A DNA stretch of 30,873 nt from Candidatus Rokubacteria bacterium 13_1_40CM_69_27 (GCA_001917535.1 MNEF01000095.1:1-30873); one strand, 5' to 3'. Positions 4,952-30,873 are shown, counted from the stretch's first letter. Numbers and translations: made by a program. The notes: generated by a model not told the origin, from the letters alone.

Positions 4952-5809
4952 CTACTTGAGGAAGCTGCCCCTCCGGTACTCCTCTACCGCCTGAGCGATC
5001 TCCTCGCGCGTGTTCATGACGAAGGGGCCGTAGCGGGCGATGGGCTCCCGGAGGGGGCGCGCGGCCAACAGCAAGAAGCGCGCGGCCGAGTCGCCGGTCG
5101 CCGCCGTCAATCGATCGCCGTCGCTCAGCGCGGCCAGTTGCCCGGCGGTGATCTCCTGGGCGCCGCCGTCCGAACCCGGGCCGAGCGAGACGCGACCCTC
5201 GTAGACGTAGGCGAACGCGTTGTGCCCGGCCTCCAACCCCGGAGAAACGCGGGAGCGCGGGGCCATCCGCACATCCAGATACAAAGGCTGGGTGGCGATG
5301 CCCTCCACCGGGCCGCGCGCACCACCGGCCTCGCCGGCGATCACCCGCGCCTGCACGCCGTCGGCCAGCGCCACCTCGGGGATCTTCGCGGGCGGGATGT
5401 CCTGGTAGCGCGGCGCCGTCATCTTGTCGCGCGCGGGCAGGTTCACCCAGAGCTGGAAGCCCCACATGAGGCCGTCCTTCTGCCGCGGCATCTCGGAGTG
5501 GATGATGCCGCGCCCGGCCGTCATCCACTGCACGCTGCCGGCGACCAGCTCGCCCTGGTTGCCCACGTGATCCTGGTGGCGCATGGAGCCGGCCAGCATG
5601 TAGGTGACGGTCTCGAAGCCGCGGTGGGGATGGTCGGGGAAGCCGGCCAGGTAGTCGTCGGGCCGGTCCGACTTGAACTCGTCGAGGAGGAGGAACGGGT
5701 CGAGCTGCTCCAGCGCCGGCGTGCCGATGACGCGGGTGAGGCGGACGCCAGCGCCGTCGGACGTCGGCTGGCCGGTGATCACTTTGGCAACGCGCCGCTC
5801 GCTCATCAT
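4952..5809 (-). CDS. Pirin-family bicupin protein (quercetin 2,3-dioxygenase-like)
   Basis: Pirin N- and C-terminal cupin signatures: GFPDHPHRGFETVTYML, GRGIIHSE and QLWVNLP. Start at ATGATG (5809/5806), which follows GGGGG. Confidence 0.85.
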   Translation of the reverse strand: MMSERRVAKVITGQPTSDGAGVRLTRVIGTPALEQLDPFLLLDEFKSDRPDDYLAGFPDHPHRGFETVTYMLAGSMRHQDHVGNQGELVAGSVQWMTAGRGIIHSEMPRQKDGLMWGFQLWVNLPARDKMTAPRYQDIPPAKIPEVALADGVQARVIAGEAGGARGPVEGIATQPLYLDVRMAPRSRVSPGLEAGHNAFAYVYEGRVSLGPGSDGGAQEITAGQLAALSDGDRLTAATGDSAARFLLLAARPLREPIARYGPFVMNTREEIAQAVEEYRRGSFLK

Positions 5810-8876: not shown

Positions 8877-9464
8877 TTACTTGCAATCGCGCATGCAGCG
8901 CACGGCGCTGGTGTCCGGGCGGTCGTCGGGGATGAAGCCGTCGCGGTTCGGCATCTGGACCTTGGGCAGCGAGCTCTGGTCCATCACGGCGTCGGCGGGA
9001 ACGAGCCCGTTCAGATGCAGGATGTAGGCCGCGACGGCGTAGACCTCGTCCGCCGTCATCGTGAGCGGGCGGTCCATCGGCATCGCGCGGCGGACGTAGT
9101 CGAAGAGGATCGGGGCATACGGGTACATGCTGCCCGGCGTGAGGACTCGCGCGTTCGTCTTGAAGGAGCCGATGCCGCCGACCATCGTGCCGTACATGCT
9201 CCCGCCCTTGGCCTCCGGCCCGTGGCAGGCGACGCACTTCGCCTCGTACACGGCCTTGCCCTGGGCGACCGTGCCCCGGCCGGGCGGGAGCCCGAGGCCG
9301 TCGGGCGTGCGGACGTCGATGTTCCAGGCCGCCAGGTCGGCCTCGCTGATCGGCTGTCCGAAGCCGACGCGCGGGCGCTCGGGCAGGCGCGACGCTGTCG
9401 GGGCCGCGCAGGCCGCCACGATCAGCGCGACCGCCACCGCGAGGACGAGCTCACGCGATCGCAT
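8877..9464 (-). CDS. sorB: Mono-heme cytochrome c, SorB-like partner of sulfite dehydrogenase
   Basis: Signal peptide followed by a single CVACHG heme-binding motif. Overlaps the 3' end of the SorA gene by 14 nt, indicating an operon. Confidence 0.65.
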   Translation of the reverse strand: MRSRELVLAVAVALIVAACAAPTASRLPERPRVGFGQPISEADLAAWNIDVRTPDGLGLPPGRGTVAQGKAVYEAKCVACHGPEAKGGSMYGTMVGGIGSFKTNARVLTPGSMYPYAPILFDYVRRAMPMDRPLTMTADEVYAVAAYILHLNGLVPADAVMDQSSLPKVQMPNRDGFIPDDRPDTSAVRCMRDCK

Positions 9465-24441: not shown

Positions 24442-24906
24442 TCACGTCAGCCGCATCGCCCTGATACACCGCCGAGGACGCCGCGCCGTGAGGATCTGCA
24501 TGCCGCGGTACACGCCGGAGACCTTGTCGAGCAGCCCGATCCGGTGACCTTTGAGGTCGGCGAGCTTCTGGTAGGGCGAGTCGCGCCAGACCACGACGAA
24601 GGTATGCATGACGGGCTGGCCCTTGAGGTTGACGTCGGCTGCGGTGACAACGGGGAAGATCCCGGCGTCGACCTGCTTGAGGAGCACCGCCTTCTCGGCG
24701 GCGGGGTCGGGAAGCATGAAGTCGACCCGGACGTCGTGCTTCTTGTCGAGCTCGAGACGCCGGACCACCTGCGTGACGAGCCTCGCGCTCCCGACGGCCG
24801 ACGCGAACGTCACCGCCGCGGGCTGGGCCACCGCGCGGCGCAGACCGGGCGATCCCCACACCGCGGCGCCGCCGACCGTCGTGGCGAGGAATCGCCGTCG
24901 ATTCAA
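24442..24906 (-). pseudogene. Truncated Tat-signal NMT1/SsuA/TauA-like ABC substrate-binding protein (about half-length)
   Basis: TTG start overlaps the cupin stop (gaTTGAat). Tat motif NRRRFLATTVGG. SBP lobe-1 sequence runs to ...GVYRGMQIL, then junk (TARRPRRCIRAMRLT*). An A-rich scar (gggggaaaagaaaaatt) lies before the next gene. Confidence 0.45.
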
Positions 24907-25880
24907 TCCGCGGGCTCCATCCGATAGAGCCGCAGCAGCTTGAGCAGCGGCACGTCCTGCGCGCTGAAGAGCACCGCCGGCTCGGATCCCAGGTTGAGGT
25001 GGGCGTGCCGCGCCCGCGGGGGCACCACGAAGAAGTCGCCGGGGCCCCACTCGAAGGTCTGCTCGTCGACCGTCGTCGCACCCTGACCCCGCACGACGCG
25101 ATAGACGGCGCAGCTCGTCTCCCGGTGGGCCCGGGTCCGTACGCCCGGGCGGAGGAGCTGGAGGTAGCAGGCGACGGTGGGGCGGAGCGAGCCGCCGGTC
25201 ACCGGGTCGAGGTACTCGAGGAGGACGTCGTCGAAGGGATCAGCTTCCTGCTCGGCGCGGCGGAGCAGGGCCGCATAGGTCTCGCTCCAGGGAAAGAAGA
25301 TGTCACGGCCGGGATTGCGGAGCGTCGGCTGCTGATCGTCGGGGTAGGGCTCGAAGGTCAGATTCTCGAGGAAGCGCACCACCTGCCAGTCGAGCACGTC
25401 CATCCAGAAGACGGGCGCGTTCCCCTCGTTGCCGTGGTCGTGCCACGCCATCCCGGGCGTGACGACCAGGTCGCCGGGCTTCATGGCGCACTTCTGGCCG
25501 TCCACGGTGGTGTACGCGCCCTCGCCGTGGAGCATGAAACGGATCGCCGTCGGCGAGTGCCGGTGGGCGGGCGCCACCTCGCCGGGCAACAGGTACTGTA
25601 CCGCGAGGACGAGACTGTGGGCGGCGGTCCGCTCGGGGACACCGGGGTTGTGGAGCCGGAGGACCCGGCGCTCGGCGCCGCGGTGAGGGCTGAGGAATTC
25701 GGCGCTTTCGCGGAGCAGCGGCTCGACGTCACGCCAGCGCCAGAGCCGGGGCTGGGTGGCGGTCGGCTTGGGCGGGATGAGCGGTCCCGGCCGGGACCAC
25801 GGGGCGTCGAGCCCCGCCGCCCGCAGCCGCGCACAGTATGCCTCGAGTTCCTCGACCGTTCGCGCCGTCTGGACCGTCAT
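24903..25880 (-). CDS. Bicupin dioxygenase, gentisate 1,2-dioxygenase-like
   Basis: Two cupin domains carry His-rich metal motifs (APAHRHSPTAIRFMLHG...H.H; a second cupin has H.H...). The size and bicupin layout match the gentisate/1-hydroxy-2-naphthoate dioxygenase family. Confidence 0.75.
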   Translation of the reverse strand: MTVQTARTVEELEAYCARLRAAGLDAPWSRPGPLIPPKPTATQPRLWRWRDVEPLLRESAEFLSPHRGAERRVLRLHNPGVPERTAAHSLVLAVQYLLPGEVAPAHRHSPTAIRFMLHGEGAYTTVDGQKCAMKPGDLVVTPGMAWHDHGNEGNAPVFWMDVLDWQVVRFLENLTFEPYPDDQQPTLRNPGRDIFFPWSETYAALLRRAEQEADPFDDVLLEYLDPVTGGSLRPTVACYLQLLRPGVRTRAHRETSCAVYRVVRGQGATTVDEQTFEWGPGDFFVVPPRARHAHLNLGSEPAVLFSAQDVPLLKLLRLYRMEPAD

Positions 25881-25905
25881 GTTCGTACTCCTTGTTGCCC
25901 CGATG

Positions 25906-26100
25906 CTAACGTCGGGCCACCTTGTCCGCCAGGCTCCAGTCCACGTAGGGCGCCAGGTCCGGGACCGGCCCCTTGACGTCCCCCAGGGCGATCATGTTCT
26001 CGAGGACCTTGCGCAAGCCTGCGGGCGACAGGCGCAGATCTCGCGGATGCGTCTTGAGCTCCTCCACCCACAAGGCCAGCGCGAGGCAGCGGATCATGGC
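25906..26100 (-). CDS. Small hypothetical protein (64 aa) translationally coupled to the upstream SBP-like gene
   Basis: Start/stop overlap gccATGAtcc. The open frame runs to the next gene start. No recognisable domain. Confidence 0.3.
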   Translation of the reverse strand, partial: AMIRCLALALWVEELKTHPRDLRLSPAGLRKVLENMIALGDVKGPVPDLAPYVDWSLADKVARR

Positions 26101-27011
26101 TCTTCCTTCAGCGTCGCGGCGGCCTGGCGGACGTACCCGATGTCGACGAGATCCTCGTAGCGGTGGCGACGCTTGATGAAGCCGCCGTCGAGCAGGATCT
26201 GCTGGAGGTACTCGAAGCCCGGCCGCCGGAGGAGCGGGTCGGTGGCCCACGTGCCCTGGCCGAGGTAGCGCTCCACCGCCCGGCGCCGCAGCTCGGCCGG
26301 GATGTCGGCGAAGTCCGGCGCGATGAGGTCGGCGATCGCGGCGGCGTCGTGGCCGGCCATCCAGCGCTGCGCCCGGAAGACCGCGCGGGTGAAGTGGAGC
26401 AGCAGTTCGGGCTCGCGCTGCAGCCGGTCGGGCGTCGTCATGTAGGACGAGAACGGCACGGGCCCGGTCGCCTCGCCCATCGAGGTCACGAGGTGGGCGC
26501 CGCTCGACAACAGCTCGTCGGTGGTGGGCTGGCCGGCCTCCAGGAACTCGCCCCGCCCGGCCCGGAAGGCGGCCACCGCGGCGGCGCCGTGCAAATCGCG
26601 GACGAAGGTGACGTGGGCGGGATCGAGACCGTGGCGACGCAGCACGGTCAGCATGCACTGCCAGGGCGTGGGCGCGCCGGCGAACGAGATCACCGTGCGG
26701 CCCATCAGATCGCGCCACGTGAAGTCGGGGCGGGGCGTGCGGCTCAGGAGGAAGAAGCCGTTCCGGCTGTTCATCTCGGCGAAGTGGGGAAAGAGGCGGC
26801 CGCCCCGGTCGGCCACGTCGAGGCTCCGCATGAGCCCGCCCAGGCTGATCTGGGCCGTGCCCTCGACGAGGGCACGGAGCGTGTTGGTGCTGCCGTCCGC
26901 GATCACGGCCTGCACCTCCAGCCCCTCGGCCGCGAAGTGGCCGCCGTGGAGCGCGACGTACTGCGGGGCGTAGAAGAGCGTCCGGAAGGGCTGCGCGACC
27001 GTGACTCTCAT
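26094..27011 (-). CDS. NMT1/THI5-like (SsuA/TauA-family) substrate-binding-fold protein without signal peptide
   Basis: Type-II PBP fold. Resembles the truncated paralog at 24442-24906 in the 'VVW...P...LADLKG..I' region. Confidence 0.65.
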   Translation of the reverse strand: MRVTVAQPFRTLFYAPQYVALHGGHFAAEGLEVQAVIADGSTNTLRALVEGTAQISLGGLMRSLDVADRGGRLFPHFAEMNSRNGFFLLSRTPRPDFTWRDLMGRTVISFAGAPTPWQCMLTVLRRHGLDPAHVTFVRDLHGAAAVAAFRAGRGEFLEAGQPTTDELLSSGAHLVTSMGEATGPVPFSSYMTTPDRLQREPELLLHFTRAVFRAQRWMAGHDAAAIADLIAPDFADIPAELRRRAVERYLGQGTWATDPLLRRPGFEYLQQILLDGGFIKRRHRYEDLVDIGYVRQAAATLKEEP

Positions 27012-27038
27012 GGCGCCCGAGTATAGATCAGCCGCGGG

Positions 27039-27959
27039 CTACTGCAGGCCGTACATCACTTTGCCGGCGACCGGCAGCTGGGCGGTCAAGATCTCGCCGT
27101 TCAGCGAATCGGTGATGTAGAGAGTCTTACGATCCGGGCTGCCGAACGCGATGTTGGTCAGCAGGCGGTGCCCGTCGGCGTGCACGAGGTGGGTCGGCAG
27201 GCAGTTCGCGTCGAAGCGCCAGACGCCCACGCCGAGGTGACAGACGACCAGACCGTCCTCCGCGTCCGCCTCGATGCCGTCGGGGCCCGCGTGGCCGCCG
27301 GAAAGCTGGATCGCGACGCCGGTCTTGGACGGCTGCCCATCCGCCATCAGCGGCAGGCGCCAGATCTGCTGGGAGCGCGTCACCGCCACGTAGACCTGGT
27401 TGTTCTTCGTGTTGAGCGTGATGCCGTTGGGGCTCGGCACGTTGGTCGCGAGCTTGTCCAGCCCTCCGGTGGCGCGCCGCCGGAACACGCGTCCGCTGGG
27501 ATCGGTGATGCCGGTCTGCCCCTGGTCGGTGAAGTAGAGATCGCCGTTGGCCGCGAAGTGCAGGTCATTCAACCCCTTGAAGCCCTCGCTGTAGGCGGTC
27601 TCCAGCAGCGGCTCCACCTTTCCGCTCCCGGCATCCAGGACCATCAAGCCCCGCCGGTAATCGGCGATGAAGATGCGGCCGTCCCTGTGGAGCTTCAACC
27701 CGTTGGGCCAGCCGTCGTACTGGGTCACCAGCTCCCACTCGCCCCTGGTCGTGATCCGGAACACGCGCCCGAACGGGATGTCCACGAAGTAGAGATTGCC
27801 TGCCCGGTCGAAGGAGGGCCCCTCGAGGAAGCTGTCCACTTCCGCGCCCTGACGGTTGTGATCCGACCACGTGGTACGGCCCTTGGTGCGGAACTTCTGG
27901 GGCATCGACATGAAGCTCTGGGCCTTGATCAGCTCGGGCTGCTTGAACGGGTTGAGCAT
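27039..27959 (-). CDS. SMP-30/gluconolactonase/LRE-like (SGL) six-bladed beta-propeller lactonase
   Basis: Repeated blade motifs: EGP.FDR.GNLYFVD, PNGL, NDL.F...GDLYFTD, PNGI, GPDGI.D..G. Confidence 0.8.
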   Translation of the reverse strand: MLNPFKQPELIKAQSFMSMPQKFRTKGRTTWSDHNRQGAEVDSFLEGPSFDRAGNLYFVDIPFGRVFRITTRGEWELVTQYDGWPNGLKLHRDGRIFIADYRRGLMVLDAGSGKVEPLLETAYSEGFKGLNDLHFAANGDLYFTDQGQTGITDPSGRVFRRRATGGLDKLATNVPSPNGITLNTKNNQVYVAVTRSQQIWRLPLMADGQPSKTGVAIQLSGGHAGPDGIEADAEDGLVVCHLGVGVWRFDANCLPTHLVHADGHRLLTNIAFGSPDRKTLYITDSLNGEILTAQLPVAGKVMYGLQ

Positions 27960-27998: not shown

Positions 27999-29423
27999 TC
28001 AGCCGAGCAAGCTCTCCTGCAGCGCCATACCGGTGAACGGGTCGACGAGCTCCCGGCCGGCCCGCTTGAAGGGGAACCAGGTGAGCGTCGTGGCCGCCAC
28101 GGATAGCTTCACGTCCGGCTTCGGCCGCGGCAGGCCGGCCGCCGTGAAATGGGCGAGGAGGGCCGCATCCTCGGCGTCGTAGAAGCAGCCGCGGACCTGG
28201 GGCCGGGTGCCCGTCCACCGGTCATACGTGCGGGGCTTCCCCGACAGGCGCACGGTGAGGTCAGCCAGCGCCTTGAGGCGGCGGTAGCGGAAGGCGGGCA
28301 CGTAGTAGCGGGAGGGGCTGTGGCCGGGCGCGGTGTCGAGCAGCCAGAAGGGGAGATAGACGGCGGCGACGTTCTGGCTCCCGTCCTTGACGTCAGCGAT
28401 CTCGTGGGGCATCTCGGTCATGTCGGTTCCGCGAATCTGCCAGACCCTCTCGCACGAGTCGCAGAAGAAGATGATGTCGTCAGGGTTCACAGGCAGGTCC
28501 CAACCGCAGTTCGGGCAGACGAGCGGCCGGAAGCCGACCGTTGGCTGGTTCCCGGCAGGTGCACTATCGAGCACCCTGTAGAGTGAGAGTGAGGCTTGGG
28601 ACTGGACGACGCTCTCCGCCACGCCGTCCACGATCGTGAGCCAGCTCTGCCCGCGCTGCTGGAGCTCGACGACCCAGAACGGGAAGTAGATCACGGACAG
28701 GATGCGGCCGAGCACTTGCCGGTACACGACGTGTTCGACGTCGCCCACCTGGAGCCCCCGCCCCGTGGCCGCCTCCACGTCGATGCCAACCTCGACGGCC
28801 GTGCCGAGGGGTGCGAGCGCGCCCGGGCGAAGGAGTCGGACGCGGAGGACCTGGGCGCGAACTCCCAGCGAGTAGACATCGAGGCCGGGGAGGTCGCGCG
28901 CCAGGAAACTCTTCTCGACGTAGCGGTCGACGAACTGAACCTGCGCCTCCAGGGCTCCACTCTTCACCTGCTGCGCCAGCGCGCGGATGACGGGTTCGGG
29001 CGCTTGCCTTCGCCAGGTGGCAGCCCTGAGGACGGCACGTACGGCATCGCTGACCTGGCGACCAAAGGCGAGGCCGGCGAGATCGGCTCCGCGAGCGTCG
29101 TCGGTGCCGGAGAACCCATCCGAATCGTCCGCGGGCTTCTGGGGTACGTCCTGCCACTGGAAGTCATGACCCCTCAGCCGGTAGAAGGGGAGGAAGTAGA
29201 GGTGAGCGCGGACAACGCGCGCCGCGAGCTGCCCTGCCCTCGCGACTGTGCCGGCCACGCCCGCTGTCACCTTCGGCGCCACGAAATAGCTCAGGACCTG
29301 CTTGCGACCGGTCACGAGCAGGTTCGAGCGGCAGTTCAGGCAGCGGACGGCGTTGGCGCCCTCGGAGAAGTCGAGGGGCGCGCTGCAGTTGGGACACTCG
29401 GTGGAGACAACGACCTCGCTCAC
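27999..29423 (-). CDS. Hypothetical 474-aa protein with two C4 zinc ribbons and a four-times repeated aromatic-Y-x-P-F-aromatic motif (two homologous halves)
   Basis: GTG start at complement 29421-29423 follows GGAGAG. The longer track ORF overlaps the upstream SPFH gene by 150 nt. ZnR1: CPNC-x17-CLNC (N-terminus). ZnR2: CPNC-x14-CDSC (middle). Motifs: YFLPFY, YFPFW, YLPFW, WFPFK. Confidence 0.55.
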   Translation of the reverse strand: MSEVVVSTECPNCSAPLDFSEGANAVRCLNCRSNLLVTGRKQVLSYFVAPKVTAGVAGTVARAGQLAARVVRAHLYFLPFYRLRGHDFQWQDVPQKPADDSDGFSGTDDARGADLAGLAFGRQVSDAVRAVLRAATWRRQAPEPVIRALAQQVKSGALEAQVQFVDRYVEKSFLARDLPGLDVYSLGVRAQVLRVRLLRPGALAPLGTAVEVGIDVEAATGRGLQVGDVEHVVYRQVLGRILSVIYFPFWVVELQQRGQSWLTIVDGVAESVVQSQASLSLYRVLDSAPAGNQPTVGFRPLVCPNCGWDLPVNPDDIIFFCDSCERVWQIRGTDMTEMPHEIADVKDGSQNVAAVYLPFWLLDTAPGHSPSRYYVPAFRYRRLKALADLTVRLSGKPRTYDRWTGTRPQVRGCFYDAEDAALLAHFTAAGLPRPKPDVKLSVAATTLTWFPFKRAGRELVDPFTGMALQESLLG

Positions 29424-29464
29424 CCTGGTGCTCTCCGGCGCCGGTCCGAGAGGATGGCTTCGTG

Positions 29465-30529
29465 CTAGCTCGAAGCGACCGCCTGGCCGCAGGACGAGCA
29501 GAAGCGCGCGTCCCCCGGAAGATCGGCCTGGCACCGCGAGCATTTTCTGGCCACGCCGAGCTGACGCCCGCAGCGCGGGCAGAACCGGCTGTCGCTCGCG
29601 ACCTGAGCCTGGCAACCCTGGCAGGTCACCGTCGCAGGCTGGGCGGCGGTGTCGGGGGCGGTCGGCCCGGTAGCGAGACTCTTCCCGAGCGTTCCCGGCA
29701 GTGCCATACCGAGCCCGGCGCCAACCCCCACGCCCATCCCAGCCGCCGCGCCGCTGGCGAGCGCACCACCGCTGGTAGCCGCGTCGCCCAGCGCTTTCGC
29801 GGCCTTGAACTTGAGGAACTGGTCCAGGTTCCCGACGGCGGCCATGCCGGAGCGCTCGTCGATCATCCGCTGGACCTCCTCGGGCGGGGTGATGCGGTTG
29901 ATGTAGAAGTCCACGAGCTCCATGCCGTACTTCCGGAAATCTTCGGCGAGCCGCGTCTTCACGGCCACAGCCATTTCGTCGTAGCTCTTGGGCAGTTCGA
30001 TCAGGCTCTGCACCGTCTCACCCAGGAAGTCGTTGAGGCGCGCCACGATCACCTCGCGCAGGTAGTCCTCGAGGTGATCGGTGGTGTACGAGCCCTGGGT
30101 GCCGACGAGGCTGTTGATGAAGAGCGCCGGCTTGGCGAGCCGCATGGTGAAGGTCCCGAAGGCGCGCAGCCGGATCATCCCGAAATAATTGTCCTTGAAG
30201 GCCACCGGATCCTTGGTCCCCCAGCGCATGTTGGTGAAGACCTTGAGGTTGGCGAAGTAGACCTCGGCGCGGAACGGGCTCTGGAACCCGTAGGGCAGGG
30301 ACAGGAGCCGCGTCAGGAGCGGCAGGTTCTGGGTGGAGAGCGTGTGGCGGCCGGGCCCGAGGACGTCGAGCCCCTTGCCGTCCCGGAAGAACATGGCGGC
30401 CTGATTCTCGCGCACCACGAGCTGGGCGCCCAACTTGATATCGGCCGAGCCCTGCCTGGGGTAGCGGTGAACGATCTCGGTGCCGAACTCGTCGAACCAC
30501 TCGATGATTTCCATCAGGATCGGTGCCAT
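29465..30529 (-). CDS. SPFH/Band-7 family protein (Band_7_1-type, often mis-annotated 'virion core protein') with C-terminal double zinc ribbon
   Basis: The N-terminus '[25 protein letters not shown]...[33 protein letters not shown]' is typical of the PF13421-type SPFH family. A Gly/Ala-rich linker follows. Then CQGC-x9-CPRC-x8-CSRC-x10-CSSC. Confidence 0.8.
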
Positions 30530-30538
30530 GGCTCCGTC

Positions 30539-30873
30539 CTATTCCGCCGTGAGGATCTGCCGGCGCTTGTCGAACGTCCGTTCGAAATCGTCCAGCGCTG
30601 CCTCCATCTCGTCCCCGGCCCGCTTGACGGCGCTCGGATCCTGATGGGACTGGCGAACGGCTGCGGCCTTGGCTTTTACCGCCGTCAGTGTCTCGAAGAG
30701 CCCCACGTCGAAGGCGTAGAGCTGCTCGAGGGTCTTCATGTCGACCTTGTGGAGGTCGAACAGCCCCCGGTAGCCTCGACCGGCGTACTCGACCGTCCGC
30801 CCGAGCTTCTCGAGCTTGCCGGCAAGCCGATCGAGCAGCGGCAGTTGCGAAAGGTCTCGGGCGTCGGTGAGCC
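30539..30873 (-). CDS. Predicted alpha-helical protein, 5'-truncated by the window edge; first visible gene of the SPFH operon
   Basis: The open frame continues to the window end with no stop. The helical composition (…LEKLGRTVEY…KTLEQLYAFDVGLFETLTAVKAKAAAVRQ…) is a PspA- or TelA-like partner only by context, not by recognisable motif. Confidence 0.45.
   Translation of the reverse strand, partial: LTDARDLSQLPLLDRLAGKLEKLGRTVEYAGRGYRGLFDLHKVDMKTLEQLYAFDVGLFETLTAVKAKAAAVRQSHQDPSAVKRAGDEMEAALDDFERTFDKRRQILTAE

Follow-up and report, generated by a model that had tools for sequence, protein, structure and literature searches.

A conserved operon encoding a helical protein, a YdjI/SamI-type SPFH protein and a duplicated zinc-ribbon protein in Methylomirabilota and other bacteria

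One end of the analyzed stretch of DNA (30,873 nucleotides, referred to below as the window), originating from an uncultured soil bacterium (Methylomirabilota), contains three co-directional genes, designated g1, g2 and g3, all located on the minus strand. Their positions, together with those of the features identified within them, are presented in Table 1. The close spacing noted in a preliminary description of this DNA was confirmed for the 41-nt gap between g2 and g3, while the gap between g1 and g2, given there as 10 nt, proved to be 9 nt long. No terminator-like hairpin was found in the g2-g3 spacer when the equivalent stretch of contig L001 was scanned for terminators.

Table 1. Features of the g1-g2-g3 gene block (positions are those of the window).
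Feature	Position	Strand	Description
g1	30539..30873	(-)	heads the operon; truncated by the window end, which leaves the 3' two-thirds; all-helical protein, 164 aa when complete
g1-g2 spacer	30530..30538	(-)	9 nt, gacggagcc; carries the Shine-Dalgarno sequence of g2
g2	29465..30529	(-)	354-aa SPFH protein, Band_7_1 / YdjI(SamI) type
SPFH (Band_7_1) domain of g2	29840..30472	(-)	aa 20-230, Pfam
Gly-zipper-like hydrophobic motif of g2	29687..29749	(-)	aa ~261-281
C-terminal zinc ribbons of g2 (two)	29489..29623	(-)	Cys 303/306/317/320 and 330/333/344/347
g2-g3 spacer	29424..29464	(-)	41 nt; GGAGAG Shine-Dalgarno sequence
g3	27999..29423	(-)	474-aa soluble protein; twice a zinc ribbon followed by helix-plus-antiparallel-sheet modules
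First zinc ribbon of g3	29331..29396	(-)	Cys 10, 13, 28, 31
Variable insert of g3	28947..29120	(-)	aa ~102-159, low confidence
Second zinc ribbon of g3	28452..28517	(-)	Cys 303, 306, 321, 324; RPLxCPNCGWDLP

The part of g1 lying within the window comprises 110 codons and the stop codon, and full-length copies (164 aa) were found in the near-identical contigs L001, L002, L003 and L005 (L001:9497-9991). Extending the contig showed that the block begins with g1, upstream of which a promoter-like element lies in a 408-nt intergenic region; the truncated gene did not prove to belong to an unrelated operon, an outcome that would have spoken against the initial proposal. In the case of g3, a mechanically predicted start at TTG 29615, overlapping g2, was rejected in favor of GTG 29423, since the latter is preceded by the GGAGAG Shine-Dalgarno sequence and gives an N-terminus matching that of 33 homologs. 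The three ORFs are considered to be genes rather than chance reading frames, because g3 has many homologs (more than 432 in a word-indexed search, and 1255 clusters at E≤1e-3 in a profile search) and because the gene order is kept in dozens of genomes. A fourth co-directional gene (SMP-30/gluconolactonase-like; 27039-27959) lies 39 nt after g3 with no terminator-like site between them; it is not conserved alongside g1-g2-g3 in other loci.

The g2 protein matched the Pfam Band_7_1 model (PF13421) over profile positions 1-210 of 211 (E = 1.5e-68; 231 bits, with a cut-off of 24), compared to 64 bits for the general Band_7 model. Weak similarity to the NCBIfam model of HflK was also recorded (E = 0.041). 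Eight cysteines arranged in four CxxC pairs constitute two zinc ribbons (Pfam DZR, E = 6.3e-10, and Zn_Ribbon_1, E = 6.1e-11, at aa 300-350), as originally proposed for this SPFH/Band-7 protein. Examination of 58 g2 homologs revealed two ribbons in 19 and three in 38 of them, with none detected in the remaining one; among the sequences shown, all those of the Methylomirabilota type have two, and all those from other phyla three. The Gly-zipper-like motif (G[MVL]G[VLI]G[VLA]GAG[LM]G[MV]M[LIM]PGM[LI]) is kept in g2 homologs from all the phyla sampled. Its Kyte-Doolittle maximum for 19 residues is 1.33 in the window, which falls under the usual transmembrane threshold of 1.6, and 1.15-1.74 (median 1.42) across the 58 homologs. 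No transmembrane segment was predicted in g1, g2 or g3. With values of up to 1.74 in homologs, the motif could enter the membrane, and it may serve as a putative segment for membrane insertion or as an oligomer plug, although the C-termini of SPFH cages face away from the membrane.

The description of g3 as a duplicated zinc-ribbon protein was also upheld: its two ribbons (CxxC...CxxC; aa 10-31 and 303-324) have cysteines that are invariant in 34 aligned homologs. The region of aa 102-159 is modeled with a pLDDT below 50 and coincides with large indels in the homolog alignment, being short or absent in some sequences. The Kyte-Doolittle 19-mer maximum of the protein (1.38) lies inside a β-strand (VIYFPFWVVEL), and no hydrophobic segment was found. 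In the source annotations, homologs of g3 are named “DNA-directed RNA polymerase subunit RPC12/RpoP”, “LSD1 zinc finger” or “RNA-binding Zn-ribbon protein”, and its PDB sequence matches, all of them weak (E>0.2), were to ribbon-bearing components of RNA polymerase and the ribosome.

The g1 family comprises at least 212 proteins, every one labelled hypothetical. The AlphaFold2 model of g1 (pLDDT 79) contains four long helices, and the protein is predicted to be a four-helix bundle. A relationship of this helical partner to PspA/IM30 or TelA, suggested earlier, was not borne out: there was no match to PF04012 (PspA_IM30), Snf7 or TelA in Pfam at E≤1, the hhalign probability was 0.2% for E. coli PspA and 0.15% for B. 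subtilis PspA, no PspA or Vipp1 chain was retrieved from the PDB at E≤10, and the model lacks the ESCRT-III fold (a long α1-α2 hairpin plus α3-5). A PspA-like identity was thus rejected by both sequence and fold, and g1 could not be linked to any component of the Psp systems. The sole Pfam match of g1 at E≤1 was a chance one, to Cep57 (E = 0.31). NCBIfam NF047596 (LIMLP_15305) was weakly matched by 19 of 20 g1 family members (best E = 2e-13) over most of the model length, e.g. profile positions 37-173 of 175 for member P0121, whose score of 44 bits is far below the equivalog cut-off of 210. Judging from these matches, g1 is at best a distant relative of this Leptospira family, for which neither a function nor a gene context has been described.

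The three genes had been proposed to form one unit, a proposal to be abandoned if they were not syntenic elsewhere. Comparative analysis of 61 genome loci, representing Methylomirabilota, Nitrospirota, Binatia, Acidobacteriota and delta/Desulfobacterota, revealed that g2 immediately precedes g3 in 56 of them, and that the g2 homologs adjoining g3 homologs are 57-80% identical to g2 of the window; g3 occurs without g2 in the other five loci (e.g. L071). Directly upstream of g2, g1 was identified in 33 of 53 loci (approximately 60%). It is missing in the other 20, among them each of the four delta loci and four of the six from Binatia, and is therefore not essential to the core. Where present, in four phyla, g1 is always co-directional with g2 and immediately 5' of it, with 9-68 nt (median 16; 33 loci) separating the last aligned g1 position from the start of g2. 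Identities to the g2 and g3 of the window co-vary across loci (r = 0.91), the divergence of g1 tracks that of g3 (r = 0.91), and identity to the window drops as taxonomic distance grows. All-against-all clustering of the flanking ORFs revealed no other conserved neighbor, as no further gene was present in more than 21 loci. These genes are a real operon, kept across several phyla.

In Methylomirabilota-type loci, the promoter-like element upstream of g1, located just past the window end, is of the σ54 type. Across 79 loci, 20 instances of TGGCA-N6-TTGCA were counted, of which 18 are placed 48-78 nt upstream of g1. The σ54 consensus (TGGCAC-N5-TTGCA, with GG at -24 and GC at -12) is matched at 10 of 11 positions in 15 loci and at 9 of 11 in a further three, whereas only 8 of 3000 background windows scored 10/11. 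Both TGGC and TTGCA are invariant in 17 aligned intergenic sequences, which have a mean column identity of 51%. In 14 of 18 loci, the -24 element is preceded at 85-101 nt by a palindrome, GTGTCAG-N4-CTGACAC (background 0.11 per kb), whose place is taken by GACA-N3-TGTC in the subclade of the window; to judge by its sequence, the palindrome is suited to be a putative upstream activator site for an enhancer-binding protein. Such a protein (GAFTGA-containing, AAA+) is encoded neither in the window nor within 8 kb in Methylomirabilota-type loci. The σ54-type element is restricted to these loci, which are related to each other. The conserved promoter-like element and the palindrome imply inducible control.

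The locus had been likened to PspA-associated modules containing Band-7 and zinc-ribbon proteins, and this resemblance was substantiated by comparison with the pspA-ydjGHI (pspA-samGHI) operon of B. subtilis. BLASTP analysis showed that g2 is a full-length homolog of YdjI/SamI (25% identity over 322 aligned positions; E = 3e-34), collinear from end to end. Both are Band_7_1 proteins with the same order of SPFH domain, Gly/Met-rich linker and C-terminal zinc ribbon, and neither has a predicted transmembrane helix; however, YdjI has one ribbon instead of the two or three found in the g2 family, and g2 carries a conserved Gly-zipper-like motif that is much more hydrophobic. The initial statement that none of the three proteins has a known function was too strong, as the g2 family includes the experimentally studied YdjI/SamI.

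The apparent relationship of g3 to YdjG/SamG is confined to part of the protein. Using an enlarged alignment (Neff 6) and a YdjG sequence checked as exact, hhalign aligned aa 8-84 of g3 with aa 54-144 of YdjG (92.5%; E = 5e-7; 74 columns), a segment comprising a ribbon, the next strand, a helix and a Y-x-P-F-W strand. Past aa 84, no significant similarity was observed at the sequence level. The first ribbon of g3 aligns with both YdjG ribbons, and the second with the first ribbon of YdjG (hhalign 91-94%). The globular domain of YdjG has been described as YpeB-related, with an NTF2-like fold (PMC11237479), and the g3 modules resemble the YpeB/PepSY/NTF2-like fold in that description. The two proteins have in common TFIIB-like ribbons and strands of the recurrent Y-x-P-F-W type, and may also share a globular part of YpeB/NTF2-like fold. 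They differ in that YdjG carries two tandem N-terminal ribbons and a C-terminal transmembrane segment, whereas g3 is split into ribbon-module-ribbon-module and has no such segment.

In both operons, an SPFH gene and a ribbon-protein gene are headed by a gene for an all-helical protein; just as a zinc-ribbon Band_7_1 SPFH gene lies beside g3, ydjG and ydjI share one operon in B. subtilis. In the latter, YdjI recruits PspA and is itself recruited by YdjG and YdjH (PMC8581546). The gene order is different (helical-SPFH-ribbon compared to pspA-ribbon-TPM-SPFH), the Bacillus operon is σW-dependent and not preceded by a σ54-type promoter as in Methylomirabilota, and g1-g2-g3 lacks both PspA (PF04012) and the TPM-domain protein YdjH. 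Since neither the window nor the surroundings of the 72 loci (up to 8 kb) contain a PspA or TPM/YdjH homolog, the link with the Psp response is one of homology of two components only.

The likeness to the E. coli pspABCDE/PspF system, the textbook σ54/PspF-dependent envelope-stress operon, concerns regulatory logic alone, i.e. the -24/-12 promoter and the upstream palindrome. The E. coli operon lacks an SPFH protein, and no homologs of PspA, PspB, PspC or PspF were detected in the window or its flanks. In other operons (stomatin/QmcA-NfeD, FloT-NfeD2, HflK/C-FtsH) an SPFH scaffold gene likewise adjoins a gene for a dedicated partner, which the scaffold, oligomerizing at the membrane, organizes; however, g2 has no N-terminal membrane anchor, and g3 is a soluble ribbon/PepSY-like protein, not an NfeD-type OB-fold membrane protein or a protease. 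A protein combining SPFH, coiled-coil and zinc-ribbon parts is also encoded in the archaeal “Meth_adaptin” ESCRT neighborhoods (Makarova et al. 2024, PMC10936438). Compared by description, these resemble g1-g2-g3 in that an SPFH protein ending in a fused zinc ribbon is encoded beside adaptor-like proteins with zinc ribbons, but they additionally encode ESCRT-III/Vps4 and adaptin-appendage proteins, none of which is present at g1-g2-g3.

The module is a stripped-down relative of the known YdjI/YdjG membrane-stress module and not a new kind of system. On balance, we think it somewhat probable that g1-g2-g3 is a conserved operon for a variant of the YdjI/YdjG (SamI/SamG)-type SPFH module that lacks PspA and predicted transmembrane segments.

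It is rather unlikely that g2 instead behaves as in the HflK/C-FtsH or stomatin-NfeD pairs, regulating a protease or channel of the membrane whose gene lies elsewhere, with g3 and g1 acting as assembly chaperones and with no Psp-type link. The general behavior of SPFH families (HflK/C-FtsH, QmcA-YbbJ, StlP) is in line with such a role, as are the weak HflK similarity and the absence of PspA from the neighborhood. What argues against it is the far better score of g2 with Band_7_1, the YdjI family, than with the general Band_7 model, the YdjG-like rather than NfeD-like character of its partner, and the lack of any conserved protease, NfeD or channel gene adjoining the module. This alternative shares a scaffold and adaptor mechanism with the YdjI/YdjG-type explanation, from which it differs mainly in the client.

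The annotations and weak PDB matches of g3 would fit a cytoplasmic regulatory or nucleic-acid-binding module, in which TFIIB/RpoP-like ribbons on both g3 and g2 would contact DNA or RNA, g3 being a transcription or translation factor that g2 anchors and sequesters. Yet these annotations depend on the ribbons alone, approximately 25 residues each, every PDB match has E>0.2, and zinc ribbons are general-purpose knuckles able to bind proteins, nucleic acids or membranes. Moreover, neither an HTH nor any other DNA-binding domain was detected, and the bulk of g3 consists of modules resembling PepSY/NTF2-like folds, which typically bind proteins or ligands. We therefore consider such a function improbable, even though the YdjG ribbon has been suggested to be possibly regulatory (Popp et al.) and SamGH of B. 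subtilis acts as a signaling unit restrained by SamI (bioRxiv 10.64898/2026.02.06.704340).

It also seems quite improbable that the g2-g3 pair alone is the functional unit and g1 an unrelated small gene, adjacent by chance in some lineages. The loci without g1 and its lack of detectable relationship to Psp components speak for this possibility; the constant position, orientation and spacing of g1 in four phyla, its divergence in step with g3, and the placement of the conserved promoter-like element of Methylomirabilota-type loci upstream of g1 and not g2 all speak against it. Finally, anti-phage defense or the phage sensing proposed earlier, with SPFH and zinc-ribbon proteins that would sense infection-induced changes in membranes or nucleic acids and trigger an abortive response, is very unlikely, as PADLOC-DB 2.0 gave no match for g1 and g2 and a single sub-threshold one for g3 (HEC-08, E = 0.0084, no significant stretch, confined to the first ribbon, aa 3-34), 2.9 million viral contigs contained no relatives of the module, PHROGs matches were confined to ribbons save for a weak one in the SPFH region of g2 (E = 0.00067), the module is not accompanied by a gene for a nuclease, protease, NTPase or another effector, nor by conserved defense genes, and the drop in identity with taxonomic distance, together with the co-variation of g2 and g3, looks like vertical housekeeping inheritance and not defense-island turnover.

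According to the YdjI/YdjG-type explanation, g2 would be a scaffold which, like other SPFH proteins, oligomerizes beneath the cytoplasmic membrane, in this case without a predicted transmembrane helix. Its dedicated partner would be g3, a counterpart of YdjG with ribbons and duplicated YpeB/PepSY/NTF2-like modules but no membrane anchor, which may dock on g2 and link it to clients. A lineage-specific accessory, effector or regulator function is conceivable for g1, which occupies the operon position of pspA in B. subtilis though unrelated to PspA. In Methylomirabilota, the operon would remain silent until an enhancer-binding protein, encoded elsewhere, activates the σ54-type promoter, by a logic similar to that of E. 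coli psp. From homology and σ54-type regulation, we infer a role in membrane or envelope stress; the three proteins would interact physically and associate with the membrane, responding to a stress signal as their presumed physiological role.

A more specific version, which we put forward as doubtful, is that the module provides self-contained membrane maintenance without PspA/ESCRT-III. In such a system, g2 would anchor itself to, or seal, the membrane by its Gly-zipper motif instead of relying on transmembrane partners, its two or three ribbons would dock the g3 adaptor, g1 would replace PspA as the membrane-acting effector, and a dedicated σ54 activator would control the operon. If this is true, the dyad of a Band_7_1 protein and a ribbon/NTF2-like protein would be an ancient core, to which PspA and TPM (in Firmicutes) or g1 (in Methylomirabilota and Nitrospirota) were added independently.

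The three genes of the module, g1 (helical protein), g2 (SPFH protein of the Band_7_1 branch) and g3 (zinc-ribbon protein), are listed in the table below. Near-identical metagenome contigs (L001, L002, L003 and L005), whose g2 protein is exactly that of the window, showed that complete g1 encodes 164 aa and has a 408-nt non-coding stretch ahead of it. The stop codon of g1 and the start codon of g2 are separated by 9 nt (not 10 nt, as given in the preliminary description), while 41 nt lie between the g2 stop and the g3 start, with a ribosome-binding site (GGAGAG) ahead of the GTG of g3. This GTG, rather than the upstream TTG of the mechanical ORF, fits the N-termini of 33 aligned homologues, and a protein identical to g3 is on record (P0001). 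Domain searches and structural models bore out the earlier view of the products as a helical protein, an SPFH protein with a double ribbon and a duplicated ribbon protein. No transmembrane helix was predicted in any of them (maximum 19-residue hydropathy of 1.09, 1.33 and 1.38 for g1, g2 and g3, respectively). Neither a sigma-70 promoter nor an intrinsic terminator was found in L001:8900-13700, and tRNA and Rfam scans of the window were empty.

Features of the module and its surroundings (L-numbers denote loci from other genomes; other coordinates refer to the window)
Feature	Position	Strand	Remarks
Three-gene region	27999-30873	minus	co-directional
g1	30539-30873	minus	runs past window end
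g2	29465-30529	minus	354 aa
Gly-zipper-like motif of g2	29687-29749 (aa ~261-281)	minus	GxGxGxGAGxGMMxPGML in homologues
g3	starts at GTG 29423	minus	474 aa
Catabolic-looking cluster	24903-27959; also L002:3089-7630	minus	directly downstream of g3; SMP-30/gluconolactonase-like, NMT1-type binding protein, 63-aa ORF, cupin (Cupin_2), phosphonate-bd-like, Amidohydro_2
BaxI_1 (Bax-inhibitor-1-like) membrane protein	L001:8340-9089	that of g1	separated from g1 by 408 nt; seen in the lineage of the window
Sigma-54-type -24/-12 element	L001:9450-9465		~210 nt past window end 30873; TGGCAA-N5-TTGCA
Loci with the element	L001, L003, L005, L007, L009-L011, L013, L014, L017, L018, L020, L021, L023, L024, L050, L051, L070		
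Palindrome (examples)	L007:6234-6250, L010:2489-2505, L070:5358-5374		

The window has a GC content of ~0.69, which together with the best hits assigns it to Methylomirabilota (Rokubacteria); its first 2000 nt (1-2000) have a lower value (0.55-0.60, compared to 0.64-0.73 elsewhere) and may be foreign or otherwise atypical DNA. The SMP-30/gluconolactonase-like gene is the fourth co-directional gene, 39 nt past g3 with no terminator-like site between them. It is not conserved beside the module and was rejected as a member, and the catabolic-looking cluster as a whole is likewise not conserved with the module. The BaxI_1 gene was also rejected, since it adjoins the module in none of the 72 other loci.

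The g2 protein matches the Pfam Band_7_1 family (PF13421) with 231 bits over the whole model, and its residues 300-350 match double-zinc-ribbon models, with eight cysteines arranged as four CxxC pairs. Two ribbons, as in the window, are the Methylomirabilota type (19 of 58 homologues), and 38 of the 58 carry three. The “low-complexity” linker of g2 was found to be a strongly conserved hydrophobic motif, G[MVL]G[VLI]G[VLA]GAG[LM]G[MV]M[LIM]PGM[LI], with a hydropathy of 1.15-1.74 (median 1.42), which is kept in homologues from every phylum sampled. Since the module contains no membrane-spanning partner, this Gly-zipper-like motif is the leading candidate for a segment that touches the membrane; another possibility is that it plugs the centre of an SPFH cage. 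Searches by sequence found no solved structure for g2 or g3.

The closest point of comparison is the pspA-ydjGHI locus of Bacillus subtilis. Its product YdjI (SamI), a soluble SPFH protein of the Band_7_1 family, has a low-complexity linker and carries a zinc finger at the C-terminus; it is recruited by the membrane proteins YdjG and YdjH (SamG and SamH) and itself recruits PspA (PMC8581546). SamI has also been described as restraining SamGH signalling (bioRxiv 10.64898/2026.02.06.704340). The YdjI and B. subtilis PspA sequences used for comparison were the genuine genes from this locus (L079), and the YdjG sequence was verified as exact. The alignment of g2 with YdjI extends from end to end (25% identity, E 3e-34), with the parts in the same order. 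The linker of YdjI is rich in Met and Asn and far less hydrophobic than the g2 motif.

Pfam analysis of g3 and 34 family members revealed no domain beyond sub-threshold ribbon matches. The protein contains two CxxC...CxxC ribbons with invariant cysteines, four copies of the strand motif [YW]-x-P-F-[WYK], the motifs PAFRYRRLK and GCFYD-EDA, and a disordered, variable insert (aa 102-159). In the AlphaFold2 model (pLDDT 79, pTM 0.75) each ribbon is followed by modules in which a helix packs against a long antiparallel sheet. It is mainly this repeated ribbon-plus-module layout of the model that hints at an internal duplication, the sequence support being weak (56% probability). Foldseek comparison of the model with the PDB gave no match at E<=0.001. 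Profile searches placed 1255 clusters (50% identity) in the family at E<=1e-3 and 161 at E<=1e-30. In some distant relatives of 560-618 aa (P0508, P0511 and P0528), the g3-like body is preceded by a GYF_2 domain at the N-terminus and by additional zinc ribbons.

When a 34-sequence profile of g3 was compared with YdjG using hhalign, the ribbons alone were aligned (85-91% probability). With a 131-sequence alignment (Neff 6), aa 8-84 of g3 matched aa 54-144 of YdjG (92.5%, E 5e-7), a stretch comprising the ribbon, the next strand, a helix and the Y-x-P-F-W strand; beyond it the sequence signal was weak, and the halves of g3 run separately also scored weakly. We take g3 and YdjG to share their building blocks, but g3 is not a strict member of the YdjG family, because its ribbons are split over two repeats (those of YdjG are in tandem), it lacks the transmembrane segment of YdjG, and the full-length alignment is not significant.

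The model of g1 (pLDDT 79) contains four long helices C-terminal to a conserved N-terminal motif, LERLVRxVPGxxGYQDRExxRxTDK. The preliminary description had likened the gene set to PspA-associated modules with a helical PspA-like protein; g1 itself is not PspA-like. It gave hhalign probabilities below 1% with E. coli PspA (sequence verified) and B. subtilis PspA, and its profile search of PDB sequences, PspA and Vipp1 included, returned nothing below E 0.5. A relationship to YdjH/TPM proteins was likewise rejected (hhalign probability below 1% with YdjH), and there was no Pfam match. The sole family-level signal came from NCBIfam LIMLP_15305, to which 19 of 20 members showed distant similarity (44 bits for family member P0121, with a cut-off of 210), and the literature found on LIMLP_15305 consisted of one table entry without functional information.

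The distribution of the module was examined using one genome per species, which yielded 72 loci with g3 relatives in Methylomirabilota, Nitrospirota (Nitrospira, Manganitrophaceae, Thermodesulfovibrionales, Sulfobium and Dissulfurispiraceae), Binatia, Acidobacteriota/Thermoanaerobaculia and delta/Desulfobacterota MAGs. Of the 61 loci with room for it, 56 have a g2 homologue (57-80% identity) directly upstream of g3, and a g1 homologue (41-70% identity) lies directly upstream of g2 in 33 of 53 (Methylomirabilota 13/13, Nitrospirota 11/20, Binatia 2/6, Acidobacteriota 2/3, delta 0/4). In loci without a detected g1 the genes at that place are unrelated, and a few genomes have g3 without g2 (e.g. 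L071). Percent identities of g2 and g3 to those of the window co-vary between loci (r = 0.91), as does the divergence of g1 and g3 (r = 0.91). All-against-all clustering of flanking ORFs revealed no further gene conserved across phyla and no membrane-protein partner, and no homologue of PspA or TPM/YdjH was detected in the window or, for all 72 loci, at a distance of up to 8 kb. The operon proposed earlier is thus real: its synteny is retained in other genomes, and on the extended contig g1 is complete and preceded by non-coding DNA, not part of an unrelated operon. As all three products are predicted to be soluble and the pair occurs in at least five phyla, the results point to the SPFH protein and its YdjG-like partner (g2-g3) as the conserved core, with g1 as a frequent first gene.

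Six MAGs labelled Dormiibacterota, Acidoferrum, Verrucomicrobiia, Deferrimicrobiaceae, Limnocylindria and the archaeon Nitrosotalea (L009, L012, L017, L020, L021, L024) encode a g3 54-56% identical to that of the window. All except L012 have the upstream sequence present, with a Methylomirabilota-type sigma-54 promoter. These loci are most likely mis-binned Methylomirabilota contigs.

Inspection of the upstream region revealed a sigma-54-type element that, in L001, agrees with the sigma-54 consensus TGGCAC-N5-TTGCA at 10 of 11 specified positions and begins 48 nt ahead of the start codon of g1. Fifteen Methylomirabilota-type loci match at 10/11 and three at 9/11, with the element lying 48-78 nt upstream of g1; among 3000 random windows, only 8 reached 10/11. 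The exact sequence TGGCA-N6-TTGCA occurs 20 times across 79 loci, 18 of them at this site. The element is invariant within an intergenic alignment of 51% mean identity. In 14 of the 18 Methylomirabilota-type loci a perfect palindrome, GTGTCAG-N4-CTGACAC, precedes the element by 85-101 nt (background frequency 0.11 per kb); in the window subclade a GACA-N3-TGTC variant takes its place (L001 ~9345-9356, GACAATGTGTCA). The palindrome is probably where an enhancer-binding protein binds; no GAFTGA-type activator gene was found within 8 kb of the operon. Given the predicted sigma-54 promoter and activator site, expression would be tightly controlled and dependent on a signal, a logic also followed by the classical E. 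coli psp operon.

Among the other phyla the element was found in a single Binatia locus (L030:5118-5983), ahead of an additional ORF (up to 306 aa, listed from GTG at 5063) that lies directly upstream of g1-g2-g3. The hydrophobic stretches of this ORF resemble membrane segments, and it may encode a lineage-specific membrane partner. In the larger Methylomirabilota clade the ~50-nt leader, which runs from the sigma-54 element to the start of g1 (L007, L010, L013, L020, L023 and others; columns ~155-195 of intergenic alignment A4), harbours an inverted repeat that is GC-rich and conserved (consensus CTGGnCCGGGCnCG-CCCGG) and could form a 5′-UTR hairpin. L001, whose leader is short, lacks the repeat.

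Beside the observed domain content, homologies, synteny and promoter conservation, we infer the following interactions, localisation and signal for the module. The g2 protein would oligomerise into an SPFH scaffold on the inner face of the membrane, g3 would be its dedicated adaptor, equivalent to YdjG, and g1 a lineage-specific accessory protein; an unlinked sigma-54 activator would turn the operon on upon a stress signal. It is also possible that g2, as an SPFH protein, regulates a protease or channel whose gene is unlinked, which is compatible with the scaffold model but gains no support from gene context. The annotations of g3 homologues would make the module a nucleic-acid-binding regulator, and these derive solely from the ribbons. 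That g1 is an unrelated neighbour of g2-g3 is at odds with its constant position, with the co-variation between g1 and g3 and with the placement of the conserved promoter-like element upstream of g1. The phage-sensing or defence role suggested in the preliminary description found no support and is unlikely, given that PADLOC returned a single sub-threshold, ribbon-only match (g3; none for g1 and g2), PHROGs matches were confined to ribbons bar one weak match to the SPFH region of g2, a scan of viral contigs revealed no relatives, no effector gene is linked and the divergence pattern looks vertical.

Associations of Band-7 and zinc-ribbon proteins with PspA are known from comparative studies and have been tested in B. 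subtilis (PMC8581546; bioRxiv 10.64898/2026.02.06.704340). Within the incomplete coverage of our literature searches, which leaves room for an earlier description, we found no account of the three-gene form lacking PspA, TPM and transmembrane proteins, of the g1 and g3 families, of the Gly-zipper motif of g2 or of the sigma-54 control.

SPFH proteins occur in all domains of life and their mechanisms are poorly understood. To our knowledge, studies of the Band_7_1 branch have been confined to YdjI/SamI, which is bound up with PspA and two membrane proteins. The operon strips this system to an SPFH protein and a YdjG-like partner, joined in ~60% of loci by a small helical protein, and thus offers a simpler, minimal system for in vitro reconstitution. 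Its experimental handles are the conserved Gly-zipper motif of g2, the invariant ribbon cysteines, the g3 motifs PAFRYRRLK and GCFYD-EDA, and the sigma-54 promoter with its palindrome. The g1 and g3 genes represent two families lacking Pfam coverage beyond zinc-ribbon matches, which are now given a name and which sit in environmentally important uncultured lineages (Methylomirabilota, Nitrospirota). While not startling, the finding should be useful to SPFH and Psp specialists, because it provides a minimal reconstitutable system and argues for an ancient dyad of an SPFH protein and a YdjG-like partner.
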